This document shows, one piece after another, positions 14,373 to 19,114 of a stretch of 64,000 nucleotides of DNA. The DNA is taken from NCBI GenBank assembly GCA_012813795.1, contig GCA_012813795.1_4087.1; one strand, 5' to 3'. The notes under the pieces are model-generated. The model was not told where the DNA came from. It saw only the letters and a program-made list of their open reading frames with translations, and did not search any database. Positions within the stretch are counted from its first letter, which is position 1; each line of letters opens with the position of its first letter. The DNA comes from a phage. Position numbers and translations under genes: made by a program.

Positions 14373-14797
14373 TAACCTCTACTCTTACTAGTATGTTCAT
14401 TTATTGCATCTACCAGGTCATAACCCTGATAGTTAATACCATCAATTATAACTTTGTACTTATTACGTACCTTTGTGCCATCAGTTTTGGTCCAAATTGT
14501 GTTGTCTGGTGTAATAGATACAGTGTGATTTAAAATGAAATCAAACATCTGTTCCTTTGATAGTACTGTGACATTTTCAGTAATCATATCTACATTGATA
14601 CATTCACGAGTATGCTCAACACCTTCAAAAATGGCAACACCTTCGGTTTCTTTCAGTTTCTGTGCTTGAGCTTTAGCCGTTCCCATATCATCGGCATGAA
14701 CTGTTTCTGTACTGTATTCTACATTTAGTACGTTACCAGTATCTACGTCTTTCCATGTGTCACGAAAATGAACTTTAATCTTTGCTGTATTAGACAC
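14369..14797 (-). CDS. hypothetical protein (142 aa)
   Basis: ORF track. Confidence 0.5.
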   Translation of the reverse strand: MSNTAKIKVHFRDTWKDVDTGNVLNVEYSTETVHADDMGTAKAQAQKLKETEGVAIFEGVEHTRECINVDMITENVTVLSKEQMFDFILNHTVSITPDNTIWTKTDGTKVRNKYKVIIDGINYQGYDLVDAINEHTSKSRGY

Positions 14798-15254
14798 GAC
14801 CGCTTACCTCATTTTCTTTCAATTTAGAACATACATAGAGAATAGCACCCAATTCGTCACGTGTCAAGTCCTGTAGGTCATATGCCACCTGCATCTGAAA
14901 GTAACTTTCATCACTAAGGTCAGTGAATTGGTCAACATTTTCTACATGCACAAAGAAGTTTTTGGGATCATCATTGTAATGTGAATTATAAGGTCTTATT
15001 GAAAACCCATGACTGTATATATCCAATACGAATTTAGCATTTAAATAGCCCTCTAAATCAAGAGATGCAAGAATCGAATTGGATCTTTCAAAAATGTCCA
15101 TGAAATTATTACGATAAGATCTTGCACAAATCAGTACATCACCGAGTTGGATATCAACTTTCTGTCCAGTCTTGGATTCAGCTAACCCAATGATGTACTC
15201 CATAAACCCAGGAAAATATTTCCTGGATTTAATATCTTTCAGTACTGGACGCAT
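14790..15254 (-). CDS. EEYFQ-motif paralog family member
   Basis: SDESYFQMQVAYDLQDLTRDELGAIL. Confidence 0.6.
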   Translation of the reverse strand: MRPVLKDIKSRKYFPGFMEYIIGLAESKTGQKVDIQLGDVLICARSYRNNFMDIFERSNSILASLDLEGYLNAKFVLDIYSHGFSIRPYNSHYNDDPKNFFVHVENVDQFTDLSDESYFQMQVAYDLQDLTRDELGAILYVCSKLKENEVSGRV

Positions 15255-15700
15255 TACATGTACCTCGCAAAAGAATCAATCTCTTCTGCATCAATCTTAA
15301 TCATATCTTCTGTACTGCTTGTGAAGATGATATGTCCATCAGGTGTAAATTGCAACCTCTGATTGATTGAGTACTGCATATTACATGAATCATATTCACC
15401 CCAGTCAATGACATATGATGCCATTTTGTCATTTGCACCGAAGAACACAACATGAGTAACATCACGCTCTGACAGGCGATCTACCAATGAAGTTCCGTTG
15501 TAAAAATCAGCCTCCGTGTCTTTCTTAAAGACAATAGCAAACTTCTTCAGTACTGATTCAATTGACAAACCATTAGCATAACGATATGCACGTTGCGATT
15601 CATCACCAACATACATGTACAGAATGTCAGTGAACTTGAAGTTTTGAACTTCACAGTTTTCAAATACTAGTTGTACTTCTTCAATGTTACCAAATGCCAT
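15254..15700 (-). CDS. hypothetical protein (148 aa)
   Basis: Start moved to MAFGNIEE (GGAG SD, downstream of promoter 15732..15760). Confidence 0.5.
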   Translation of the reverse strand: MAFGNIEEVQLVFENCEVQNFKFTDILYMYVGDESQRAYRYANGLSIESVLKKFAIVFKKDTEADFYNGTSLVDRLSERDVTHVVFFGANDKMASYVIDWGEYDSCNMQYSINQRLQFTPDGHIIFTSSTEDMIKIDAEEIDSFARYM

Positions 15701-15731
15701 TTTATATCTCCGTGTACTCATATGTAATTCG

Positions 15732-15760
15732 ATTACATATAGAAACAATTTAAATGTCAA
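15732..15760 (-). promoter_or_regulatory. sigma-70-type promoter
   Basis: TTGACA-N17-TGTAAT. Confidence 0.5.
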
Positions 15761-15790
15761 CCCATTCAAATCAGACAGTTATGTGGTCGT

Positions 15791-16258
15791 TCACACTGTA
15801 CCCTTATTTGGAATCATTGCACTTAATCTTATTAAATCACGAATTTCTTCATATGTCAAGTCATGGATATCATGTAGAGTTTGAATCTGGAAGTACTGTT
15901 CTTCGGTTAATGGATGATAATTAGCACCAACTTCAATGTGACAGATTTCTGTGCTCTCAATAACTGAACTTAAATCCAAATTAACAGCATTAAATGGTGT
16001 TAAATGTAATGTAACACCACCGGAATTCACAATTACAGTGTATGTACGTTCGGTTCCCCTGTACATGTGTAGCCTCAGTGAGTGAATTTTCTCAAATGAA
16101 GTTGCAGCCCCATGAAGTTTATATGCATATATCTCAATGCTATATGAAGCATTCCATTGTGATGGATGATAACGGCACATCTTTTTTACCATCATGTCAA
16201 TTGCAGCACCCACCATACGACCCAAGTACTCACGATTAACTACTTGATCAAATCGCAT
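15791..16258 (-). CDS. EEYFQ-motif paralog family member
   Basis: LTEEQYFQIQTLHDIHDLTYEEIRDLI. Confidence 0.6.
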   Translation of the reverse strand: MRFDQVVNREYLGRMVGAAIDMMVKKMCRYHPSQWNASYSIEIYAYKLHGAATSFEKIHSLRLHMYRGTERTYTVIVNSGGVTLHLTPFNAVNLDLSSVIESTEICHIEVGANYHPLTEEQYFQIQTLHDIHDLTYEEIRDLIRLSAMIPNKGTV

Positions 16259-16659
16259 CTGAAATCCTCAATAAATTTCTGTACTGAAACCATCAACTCA
16301 TAAGGAATTCGCATATCTTTCACAGTGCTATCCTGAAAGTACTCTTCTTCAGTAGTATACAACTTACTAGCTGCCATTTTAACATCTTCAAAATCATCAT
16401 GAAAGAATTCGTTCTCATTGACAATAACATTAATACGTGCGTCATTAACCAATGTACCAGGAACTAGGTGAATTCCAAATGATAGACCACTTTTAATATC
16501 CTGAATATGGATAGTCAGAACACCATTATTCAGATAGCACCAGTTTTCATCTCCGAAGTAAACGTTCAATCCTTCACCTGGATAACGAAACTCACCATGA
16601 TTATCAAGTGCATTGATGATCATTTCATTGTATTCTGTACTTAACTTATAATTTTTCAT
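16240..16659 (-). CDS. EEYFQ-motif paralog family member
   Basis: TTEEEYFQDSTVKDM. Confidence 0.6.
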   Translation of the reverse strand: MKNYKLSTEYNEMIINALDNHGEFRYPGEGLNVYFGDENWCYLNNGVLTIHIQDIKSGLSFGIHLVPGTLVNDARINVIVNENEFFHDDFEDVKMAASKLYTTEEEYFQDSTVKDMRIPYELMVSVQKFIEDFRCDLIK

Positions 16660-17534: not shown

Positions 17535-17570
17535 AAAAGAAAAAAGGCCGATTCAATTTGAATCAGCCTT
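17535..17570 (-). terminator. rho-independent terminator
   Basis: AGGCTGATTCAA-ATT-TGAATCGGCCT followed by T6 on the minus strand. Confidence 0.7.
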
Positions 17571-17571
17571 A

Positions 17572-17600
17572 AGTATAACATTTGTGGCATTGAAAGTCAA
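17572..17600 (-). promoter_or_regulatory. sigma-70-type promoter abutting the terminator
   Basis: TTGACT-N17-TATACT; predicted start falls inside the 5' arm of hairpin 17535..17570. Confidence 0.5.
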
Positions 17601-17850
17601 TACCAAAATCAAAAGTAATAACCTAGAGGGAGGGTAGTTATTACTCGTTTAGTGACATATATAATGATAAACAGGAGGTAAAAAACATTATACATGTTAT
17701 ATCTCTCCAGAACTACAATGATAGGTACTGGACCTGGAGAGAATGGAAAGACAAACCACTCACAGTACCATTTTACGACAAAATATGTGATAGCTTCTGA
17801 AAGAAAAAGGAGGATTCAGTACTGCTCCAGAAGCTATCGGTATAACATTT
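17601..17850 (-). other. 250-bp intergenic region with three long hairpins (possible leader or sRNA)
   Basis: Stems AGTAATAAC/GTTATTACT, CTCTCCAG/CTGGAGAG and GATAGCTTCTG/CAGAAGCTATC; two CAGTACTG copies. Confidence 0.35.
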
Positions 17851-18129
17851 TCAGTACTGAATGTTTAGTTTAGGATGAGTATGTCCATCTTCGATTTGTT
17901 TTAGAATCGAGTCACGAATTTCTACTGCCCCTTGATAACTATATTTATCTCGTGGGATCACCCATGTATATTCACCATCAGTGGTTTTAAAATCAATACA
18001 CGGGTTATCTTTATATTCAGATGCAACCATTGCAATTACATGAATAGAATTCAAAGAATGATTAGAATACGGATAATTATCTTTGAACTTAAAGGTCTTG
18101 AGTTCTTCAGGAGCTACAATGAATTCCAT
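17851..18129 (-). CDS. hypothetical protein (92 aa)
   Basis: ORF track. Confidence 0.5.
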   Translation of the reverse strand: MEFIVAPEELKTFKFKDNYPYSNHSLNSIHVIAMVASEYKDNPCIDFKTTDGEYTWVIPRDKYSYQGAVEIRDSILKQIEDGHTHPKLNIQY

Positions 18130-18344
18130 TATTCATCCTCGTACTTCTTAAATGGTGGTACTGTTACATTGAAGTCTTTGCACATTTTAGTGGAACGAAC
18201 TTCAGTGTTGTTGTGGTAATTCTTCTTAAATTCATAAGAAACAAAATTACGAATACCTGGTGTATGAATAATTGCAAGAACAAAGGTACGACCAAAAAGA
18301 CATAACAAATTCCAGAACATATTAATCTCCAAATTAGTAGGCAT
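18129..18344 (-). CDS. hypothetical protein (71 aa)
   Basis: ORF track. Confidence 0.4.
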   Translation of the reverse strand: MPTNLEINMFWNLLCLFGRTFVLAIIHTPGIRNFVSYEFKKNYHNNTEVRSTKMCKDFNVTVPPFKKYEDE

Positions 18345-18696
18345 TAATCAAACGTGATACATCTAGTATAGCGTTAATCTCTTCTAATGTCAAGTCACCA
18401 ATGTCATTTATCATTGAGTACTGAAACAGTGATTCTTCAGTGTAATTGCATTCTGGTACAGCGATAAGGATAGGCTGCTTGGATACGTCCAAAGTTATTT
18501 TAGCCATTGTGCTATATATATCAAATTGATATAATTGATTTTTGGAAGTATATGATATGTATATATTATTTGATTCAGATGGATGTACCAAGGTAAAACC
18601 ATCGTAACATAATAGTTTAATGTTCGGATCGTCAAAATTGCCTGTATAAAGGTTCTTTCGAACATCTTGTATTATACGTACTATTAGACTAGTCAT
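18334..18696 (-). CDS. EEYFQ-motif paralog family member
   Basis: YTEESLFQYSMINDIGDLTLEEINAIL. Confidence 0.6.
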   Translation of the reverse strand: MTSLIVRIIQDVRKNLYTGNFDDPNIKLLCYDGFTLVHPSESNNIYISYTSKNQLYQFDIYSTMAKITLDVSKQPILIAVPECNYTEESLFQYSMINDIGDLTLEEINAILDVSRLINAY

Positions 18697-19114
18697 TTAA
18701 TGGATTTATTACCTCTACTGGAATCAACTTTTGAACTTTAAGGATAGCACTAATGTCCTCAAATGTTAATCCTAATGTGTTGTTAACGAGGCAGTACTGG
18801 AAGAATTTTTCTTCAGTATTTACATCGTCAACATTCAATTCAATTGATTTATCATCTCCATCTTCAACATCAAACTCAAAATCATAAATTCTGAATATCA
18901 CACGTTCAAAATACACATCAATTGAATAAAAATATTTACCCAATGTATAACCCATGAAAATATTAAAACATGTATTTAAATCTGTTGTTTCATGTAAATT
19001 TGTGTCAAAACAAAAAACTCGCACTTCACCAATATTATCTATATAATCATCTTTGAGTGACCATGCGTTGTTTTTTAATACATAGTTTACCATTTCAACG
19101 ATGTTGTATTTCAT
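18689..19114 (-). CDS. EEYFQ-motif paralog family member
   Basis: NTEEKFFQYCLVNNTLGLTFEDISAIL. Confidence 0.6.
   Translation of the reverse strand: MKYNIVEMVNYVLKNNAWSLKDDYIDNIGEVRVFCFDTNLHETTDLNTCFNIFMGYTLGKYFYSIDVYFERVIFRIYDFEFDVEDGDDKSIELNVDDVNTEEKFFQYCLVNNTLGLTFEDISAILKVQKLIPVEVINPLND

Follow-up and report, generated by a model that had tools for sequence, protein, structure and literature searches.

What is the origin of the eighteen small open reading frames (ORFs) with a common C-terminal sequence motif that recur along a 64,000-nucleotide (nt) stretch of phage DNA (GenBank assembly GCA_012813795.1, contig GCA_012813795.1_4087.1; this whole stretch is called the window below), and what might so many copies do for the phage? 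An initial annotation had described them as an amplified family in tandem arrays, each member joining a constant adaptor helix to a hypervariable domain. The window has 34% G+C, and every long ORF in it lies on the minus strand. Its bases 14000-20000 and 29000-40000 are 97.9% and 99.5% identical, respectively, to Escherichia phage A4 (ON286972, 355.5 kilobases (kb), genus Asteriusvirus), and it corresponds approximately to 262-326 kb of A4 in reverse orientation; 121Q, PBECO4, phAPEC6, G17 and other Asteriusvirus genomes give partial matches to these stretches, at 78-88%. We are nearly certain that the family is real and has the architecture described below. It is a lineage-specific expansion of one family of small (~120-170 amino acids (aa)), mostly acidic proteins that is characteristic of RaK2-like jumbo phages.

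All 18 ORFs were found on the minus strand at the positions first assigned to them (Table 1). Their multiple alignment by MAFFT displays the reported C-terminal module, namely the [ST]EE-x-[YFL]-F-Q-x-S-L motif followed by L-[TS]-x-[DE]-[DE]-[LI]. Together the ORFs cover 7,842 nt, or 12.25% of the window (about 12% had been estimated), and the overlaps of 4 to 19 nt follow from their coordinates. Pairwise comparison by phmmer of all 101 minus-strand ORFs, without any preselection, yielded one single-linkage cluster of 17 that holds 16 of the 18. Starting from the lone seed 18334..18696, jackhmmer collected 15 window members and 28 ORFs of A4, 43 in total, and no decoys from a test set in which every window and A4 ORF was accompanied by three decoys (~2,000 decoys).

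A search profile of the 18 window sequences was then run against 1.84 billion representative proteins, and a 96-sequence alignment, A3, was made from the matches. Since the cluster representatives of six members (173, 14790, 17126, 30429, 31236 and 23571, by first coordinate) were left out of A3, these six serve as independent tests. The hidden Markov model (HMM) of A3 found exactly the 18 window ORFs, with E values from 2.3e-20 to 2.6e-7; none of 5,180 shuffled decoys scored higher, and 27 decoys precede the next real window ORF in the ranking. In HMM-HMM comparison by hhalign all 18 obtained probabilities of 78-98%, and the best non-member 22%. When the 44-column motif alone was used in leave-one-out HMMs, 12 of the 18 were separated from shuffled decoys and the other six fell at or below decoy level; we retain these six as members because the larger full-length profile supports them. 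The proposed homology and tandem amplification are thus borne out, and the arrays represent a large expansion of true homologues.

The same searches gave no support to four ORFs that had been listed as possible distant relatives. Three of them (13516, 25779 and 21695) are the second to fourth best non-members and align at the motif position, with hhalign probabilities of only 4.5-6%; the fourth (41866) reaches 0.6% and is without support. The 1,149-aa protein P0168, in which seven stretches were matched, is a false positive, only the strand region of the profile being involved. It contains a repeated '...VEDMEYFQVMISV...' unit that we take by eye to be of the Calx-beta type.

Table 1. Family members in the window, elements of the modelled representative, further copies in phage A4, and associated promoter and tRNA features. 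E values are from the A3 HMM; "independent" marks members without a cluster representative in A3. AF2, AlphaFold2; pI, isoelectric point; pLDDT, predicted local distance difference test; pTM, predicted template modelling score.
Coordinates	Strand	Feature	E value	Further evidence
173..679	-	member, 168 aa, GTG start, pI 4.6	8.5e-9 (independent)	hhalign 94%; motif STEEGVFQSSL
14790..15254	-	member, 154 aa	1.5e-12 (independent)	hhalign 96%; motif LSDESYFQMQV
15791..16258	-	member, 155 aa	2.3e-18	hhalign 98%
16240..16659	-	member, 139 aa	2.9e-16	hhalign 97%
16656..17129	-	member, 157 aa	1.1e-13	tblastn: orthologue only in phage A4 (50,697 phage records)
17126..17521	-	member, 131 aa, start as in A4_157	3.3e-8 (independent)	hhalign 91%; divergent motif LQEEMYEQLCF
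18334..18696	-	member, 120 aa, the shortest	2.9e-18	phrog_17453, E 6e-44; jackhmmer seed
18689..19114	-	member, 141 aa, modelled representative	2.3e-20	AF2 pLDDT 86.7, pTM 0.81; helix, seven strands, helix, helix
23571..24074	-	member, 167 aa, basic (pI 8.7), long C-terminal helix, weakest by sequence	2.6e-7 (independent)	hhalign 78%; AF2 pLDDT 85.4
30429..30884	-	member, 151 aa from TTG (A4 annotates an ATG start 12 nt further in)	8.3e-13 (independent)	phAPEC6 counterpart 93% identical, conserved
31236..31712	-	member, 158 aa	9.4e-8 (independent)	hhalign 92%
35051..35473	-	member, 140 aa	2e-18	phAPEC6 positional homologue only 37.5% identical
35470..35910	-	member, 146 aa	7.7e-18	positional homologue 24.7% identical
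35907..36287	-	member, 126 aa	1.1e-14	
36678..37103	-	member, 141 aa	2.9e-14	
37093..37527	-	member, 144 aa	1.7e-18	phrog_24941
37545..37940	-	member, 131 aa, pI 7.8	1.2e-10	
38719..39156	-	member, 145 aa	8e-19	1:1 orthologues across genera
residues 5-15; 19-94; 101-110; 118-128 of 18689..19114		model elements: helix; seven strands; helix; helix		
A4, 30.7-59.5 kb		array of 35 members outside the window, more divergent, many of 170-210 aa		
A4, 73.7, 117.9 and 134.0-135.1 kb		single or paired copies		
A4, 287.7-331 kb		21 members		
19497..19524	-	perfect sigma-70 consensus TTGACA-16-TATAAT		upstream of tRNA-Thr 19131..19204 and the 19114-18334 gene pair
19131..19204; 20725..21063; 23171..23260	-	tRNA genes		

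What kind of protein the family encodes was addressed with AlphaFold2 models of two members, a check that the initial annotation had itself proposed. The model of 18689..19114 was computed from an alignment of orthologues and paralogues, and in it helix 101-110 corresponds to the TEExFFQxxL motif and helix 118-128 to the LTxEDI motif; the segment of the motif helix exceeds a pLDDT of 95 in the models. In the model of 23571..24074 (pTM 0.77) the elements follow one another as in the first, except that the last helix is longer. Although the two proteins are only 11% identical, they adopt one topology of a helix, seven strands and two helices, an agreement that is supportive and not fully independent, because family alignments were used for both models. 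Each member is therefore predicted to be a single compact domain of alpha-beta7-alpha2 type, its seven strands forming an antiparallel sheet, in place of the adaptor helix joined to a hypervariable domain that had been suggested. The conserved module would comprise the two C-terminal helices, [ST]EE-x-[FY]-F-Q-x-S-[LT]-[VIL]-x-D and then [LI]-[TD]-[FY]-E-[DE]-[IL].

Column statistics over the 96 relatives are in agreement with this fold, with amphipathic stripes visible in all three helices. In the N-terminal helix positions 9, 12 and 13 are hydrophobic in 89-94% of the sequences, and alternating strand positions 52/54, 63/65/67 and 72/74 in 78-98%. Within the motif helix T/S100, E101, E102, F105, Q106 and S108 are 92-100% conserved and D/N112 is 91% conserved; these conserved residues sit on the stripes that hold core hydrophobic residues, and the stripe 103/107/111, most likely facing solvent, is variable. 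The N-terminal two-thirds of the proteins, said to have diverged beyond easy recognition, have indeed diverged, but they remain recognizable: profile matches of distant relatives commonly span profile positions 25-126 and so reach well into the N-terminal part, which is thus homologous and keeps the hydrophobic pattern of its helix and strands. These patterns suggest a two-layer alpha/beta domain with the helices packed over one side of the sheet and with variable residues on the opposite side and in the loops. The C-terminal helices probably pack on the sheet as an invariant core, and possibly form an oligomer interface.

Two other interpretations of the motif were considered and rejected. 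Its resemblance to the tobacco etch virus (TEV)/3C protease site E-x-x-[YL]-F-Q does not extend to the residue after Q, which is variable rather than G or S; in addition, the motif lies in the confidently modelled helix, where the F and L positions look like core positions. An enzymatic function is unlikely, since the conserved polar residues all lie on one helix, the only other one being a D/N in a hairpin turn.

How large is the family, and where does it occur? Scanning of A4, the closest complete genome of a jumbo phage, with the A3 profile revealed 60 members, most of them in tandem arrays, all on the coding strand and all ranked ahead of the first decoy, amounting to ~10% of the 591 numbered coding sequences of that phage. 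The scan covered 350 of the 355.5 kb; the 250 kb scanned first were accompanied by 5,185 decoys, and no match came from the other 100 kb (best E 0.63). None of the A4 members lies in the 150-250 kb block of structural and replication genes, and none carries a structural-protein annotation in A4. One of them, A4_348 (37063..37599), is annotated as 'DNA ligase', which looks like a mis-annotation. The proportion of 60 among 591 agrees with the RaK2 genome paper (PMC3622015), which mentions without elaboration that paralogues make up nearly 10% of the gene products of that phage.

At least 178 clusters in public data, defined at 50% identity, reach E ≤ 1e-3 in the search of the 1.84 billion proteins. 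The strict motif pattern is present in 130 of 145 examined cluster matches and a variant of it in most others, giving an approximate consensus LTEEEYFQxS[TL][VI]xDFxDLT[FY]ED[IL]. All named members come from jumbo phages of the RaK2 group with genomes of ~350 kb. They include Asteriusvirus phages of E. coli, the Klebsiella phages RaK2, K64-1 and fENko-Kae01, the Salmonella phages Munch, SE_PL and 7t3, an Erwinia phage, Cronobacter phage GAP32 and Pectobacterium phage CBB. On two metagenomic contigs five and seven members follow one another consecutively.

The initial annotation had matched the module to no named domain, and the family libraries bear this out. No match was obtained in Pfam for the 96 relatives (the SUKH/SMI1-KNR4 models included) or in NCBIfam for the 18 window members, and a profile search of the PDB sequences gave nothing below E 0.2. 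A word-indexed homologue search with the 96-sequence alignment returned only orthologues of 18689..19114 again. In PHROGs the members match directly at least 27 families of unknown function (phrog_17453, 24941, 24321, 23322, 27549, 24510 and at least 21 others), so that what is one superfamily here is split there into at least 27 separate families, none of them annotated. The jumbo-phage and Asteriusvirus papers searched describe neither the motif nor the fold nor the extent of the family, which is thus undescribed in these papers and libraries.

The evolution of the family combines old paralogues with rapid turnover of some of them. Within the window the median pairwise identity of paralogues is 24% and the maximum is 39%, indicating that the duplications are old. 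The gene 38719..39156 has orthologues with 72% identity in other Asteriusvirus phages, 48% in RaK2/K64-1, 32% in the Erwinia phage and 27% in Salmonella phage Munch. At the other extreme, the six-gene array at 14790-17521 has a DNA match only in A4 among 50,697 phage records, and the protein search of these records with 16656..17129 also found A4 only. For the array at 35-38 kb, the phAPEC6 counterparts are 25-44% identical, whereas flanking non-family genes are 70-98% identical; the median identity to phAPEC6 is 37.5% for the family versus 72.9% for neighboring genes (Mann-Whitney p=0.006), a comparison made by identity only, as the divergence is too saturated for the ratio of nonsynonymous to synonymous substitution (dN/dS). 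Identities this low are also seen between paralogues, which makes replacement of a cassette no less likely than rapid divergence of the resident gene. Turnover differs from member to member, some being stable 1:1 orthologues and others replaced quickly, and member content differs strongly between congeneric phages.

Comparison with A4 provides a view of this process at short range. Five minus-strand window ORFs (20028..20429, 21124..21681, 22264..22533, 22735..22929 and 25157..25726) have no DNA match in A4, despite flanks that are 98-99% identical. In the vicinity of two of them A4 has the family members A4_148 and A4_139, which occupy, or lie near, places where the window has unrelated genes. 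These differences represent cassette replacement between near-identical phages. For the family genes shared with A4, dN/dS is 0.23 (33 nonsynonymous and 34 synonymous changes), and for other genes it is 0.12; this points to purifying selection, somewhat relaxed, rather than to positive selection.

The family genes had been placed behind sigma-70-type early promoters. At the level of the region this holds: 31 of the 32 near-consensus sites in the window (TTGACA-N16-18-TATAAT, 11 or more of the 12 bases matching) lie on the coding strand, and the remaining one lies on the other. However, there is not one promoter per gene; most members lie inside overlapping multi-gene units downstream of promoter matches. 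With a looser promoter scan the window is no richer in sites than shuffled sequence. The perfect consensus site listed in Table 1 is a putative promoter. In the distantly related phage PA5oct transcription depends on the host RNA polymerase, and blocks of uncharacterized genes are expressed early (PMC7318152). No Asteriusvirus transcriptome was found in the literature searched. Transcription of the family early in infection by the host sigma-70 RNA polymerase is probable.

Several other features accompany these transcription units. Consensus promoters at 2534-2564, 2883-2920, 8012-8042, 21673-21710 and 22534-22571 share an extended sequence, with CAGTACTG in the spacer (minus strand TTGACA...CAGTACTGTATAATGT), which suggests either a phage-specific class of early promoters or recombination repeats. 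At 17600-17572 (minus strand) there is a promoter-like site (10 of 12 bases, with TG upstream), and a strong terminator-like hairpin of 12 pairs and a T-run comes directly after it at 17570-17544; the array beginning at 17521 lies just downstream. An alternative longer start of 17126..17521, at 17590, would take in this hairpin. The combination of promoter and stem-loop at 17544-17600 is reminiscent of mobile regulatory cassettes in T4-type phages. Five tRNA genes (Thr-TGT, Asn-GTT, Met-CAT, Ser-ACT and Ser-TGA) are scattered among the small ORFs, that for tRNA-Thr being 17 nt upstream of a family gene. By approximate mapping of coordinates, 5360..6322 (minus strand) appears to correspond to A4_181, annotated as a sigma factor of the sigma-70 family, and a shorter sigma-like ORF, A4_187, is annotated near it in A4; these sigma-like ORFs may bear on a temporal switch from the early promoters. 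Finally, a peptidyl-tRNA hydrolase of PTH2 type (PF01981, E 2.6e-18) is encoded at 36281..36691 (minus strand) inside the family array and overlaps members on both sides.

The most likely role of the family, in our view, is that of a diversified repertoire that binds or inhibits host proteins early in infection, a proposal to which we would give an even chance. According to it, the multi-gene arrays would be transcribed, probably early, and a stable common scaffold would present many different binding surfaces, the outward-facing alternate strand positions and the loops being free to vary. Each paralogue would bind a different host protein, for example a defense or housekeeping factor, and neutralize or redirect it, and the phages would exchange or replace gene cassettes as hosts change; alternatively, the targets could be proteins of rival phages. 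The fast turnover between related phages fits such a conflict-related role, and we also count in favor of the proposal the probable early context, the prevailing acidity of the members and the lack of structural-protein annotations among them in A4. A number of observations weigh against it. With dN/dS below 1 there appears to be no direct sign of positive selection, and the high conservation of some members across genera suits a housekeeping function as much as a conflict. The near-invariant polar T/S, E, E, Q, S and D of the motif helix exceed what packing usually needs and might belong to a functional site common to the family. Three members are neutral or basic, and the common topology of the two models is, as noted above, not fully independent evidence.

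The nearly invariant helix is central to two alternatives. In the initial reading it would dock all paralogues on one machine, such as RNA polymerase, the ribosome or the AAA+ proteases Lon and Clp, while the rest of the protein selects the cargo or effect. This agrees with the 90-98% conservation of T/S100, E101, E102, Q106, S108 and D112 in 96 relatives otherwise only ~12-25% identical, with the presence in the phage genome of proteins annotated as protease adapter, ClpP-like and ClpA-like, and with the appearance of yeast Mam33, the nearest fold analogue, in a study of how the Lon protease Pim1 selects its substrates (PMC12802967). We nevertheless regard it as rather unlikely: the helix lies inside one compact domain (pTM ~0.8), its stripe 103/107/111, which is expected to face solvent, is the variable one, and the N-terminal part is no unrelated domain, as it keeps a conserved structural pattern. 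Similarly doubtful, if attractive, is the proposal that the proteins resemble p32/MAM33 and assemble through the conserved helices into homo- or heterotrimeric acidic rings that sequester basic nucleic-acid-binding proteins, such as nucleoid proteins, nucleases or ribosomal proteins, and so serve as nucleic-acid mimics or chaperones. The alpha-beta7-alpha2 topology, assigned by DSSP in both models, is common to the family and to p32/gC1qBP/Mam33 (MAM33, PF02330; PDB 1p32, 3qv0, 7te3, 1yqf and 3jv1), as described for 1p32. The fold evidence for a p32-like oligomer is weak. A significant superposition on the solved p32/MAM33 structures was not obtained, the structural scores being below usual significance and equalled by other meander sheets (OspA, LolA and porins). 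No sequence link to p32/MAM33 was found; the MAM33 Pfam model was not matched by the first member, nor was it among the best 25 of 48 families at E ≤ 10. Homotrimeric rings with an asymmetric acidic surface are a property of p32; for the present proteins acidity was measured in bulk. A pI below 5 is found in 68% of 144 relatives against 24% of the other window ORFs, but ~6% of the relatives and two of the 18 window members are basic. DNA mimics of the Ocr, ArdA and Arn type are uniformly very acidic, and their charges are arranged like those of a DNA backbone; within the window 13 of the 18 have a pI of at most 5.02 and three have a pI of 6.3-8.7. It is very unlikely, in our estimate, that the ~60 paralogues form mixed p32-like rings via their C-terminal helices and so provide a combinatorial 'decoy repertoire' of acidic surfaces that occupies a tenth of the genome and sequesters many different basic, nucleic-acid-binding host proteins, for example defense nucleases and nucleoid or ribosomal proteins.

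Two further explanations dispense with host targets. Each paralogue might block a component of a rival phage, in inter-phage competition or superinfection exclusion. The turnover and cassette replacement would be expected here as under host-protein binding, and the genes lie in a promoter-rich, probably early region, but nothing specifically supports this role, and membrane association, common among exclusion proteins, was predicted for no member (no formal test was made); we think it quite improbable. The least credible explanation, and a highly improbable one, is that the genes are dispensable duplicated 'filler' without specific function. All of them are annotated as hypothetical, and their content differs between near-identical phages, which speaks for it; on the other hand, the dN/dS value, the lack of recent duplicates (top paralogue identity 39%), the maintenance of 1:1 orthologues of individual paralogues across phage genera, and the intact, tightly packed ORFs with overlapping start and stop codons all speak against it.

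Diversified host-protein binders have parallels in other viruses. The Bcl-2-like and ankyrin proteins of poxviruses and the MGF360/505 families of African swine fever virus (ASFV) bind host immune proteins, as demonstrated experimentally. The present family is similar to them in that one stable scaffold has diversified to low identity, with clustering in variable regions and strain-dependent content; it differs in fold and hosts, and host binding, shown there, is inferred here. The early host-takeover genes of T4-type phages are mostly unrelated singletons. They share with the family small, packed, overlapping ORFs, sigma-70-type promoters and location in plastic regions, and they differ from it in being singletons rather than one superfamily of 60 copies. 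Finally, a comparative review described as "unprecedented" a ~35-copy expansion of a zinc ribbon in Bacillus phage G (Iyer et al., PMC7824862). Both cases are massive amplifications of one small domain in a jumbo phage, but the present family has another fold, lacks zinc-binding cysteines and any DNA-binding signature, and reaches a larger copy number.

The window contains additional features unrelated to the family. A C5-cytosine DNA methyltransferase of 632 aa, encoded at 32273..34171 (minus strand), carries an intein, recognized by the Pfam domains Hint_2 (77-133), LAGLIDADG_3 (294-360) and Intein_splicing (88-423) between DNA_methylase segments; its phAPEC6 homologue, of only 861 nt, is without the insert. 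A 52-nt element is repeated at 22716-22767, 22877-22928, 23041-23092 and 23552-23603. Read on the minus strand as ATGACACATGAAGAATGG, it encodes M-T-H-E-E-W and lies at the beginning of very small ORFs that form a mini-family. Near these elements is a pair of 174-nt repeats, 71% identical (23401-23574 and 24129-24302). Three weak pairs of paralogues, unrelated to the main family, were also detected on the minus strand (phmmer E 4e-6 to 7e-3): 8353..8778 and 8778..9233, 20028..20429 and 21695..22078, and 40475..40822 and 40749..41024.

As a consequence of this analysis, about 10% of the genes of widespread 350-kb enterobacterial phages, several of which are considered for therapy, can be assigned to one family that has had neither a name nor a Pfam model. 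Once the superfamily is defined by its motif and a confident fold model, ~60 hypothetical proteins per genome become one testable question, and annotation gains as well, as for the mislabelled 'DNA ligase' member of A4. If the proteins do bind host proteins in this diversified way, they would offer a rich supply of novel inhibitors against defense or housekeeping proteins of bacteria, and the family would be a bacterial-virus counterpart of the multigene families of poxviruses and ASFV.

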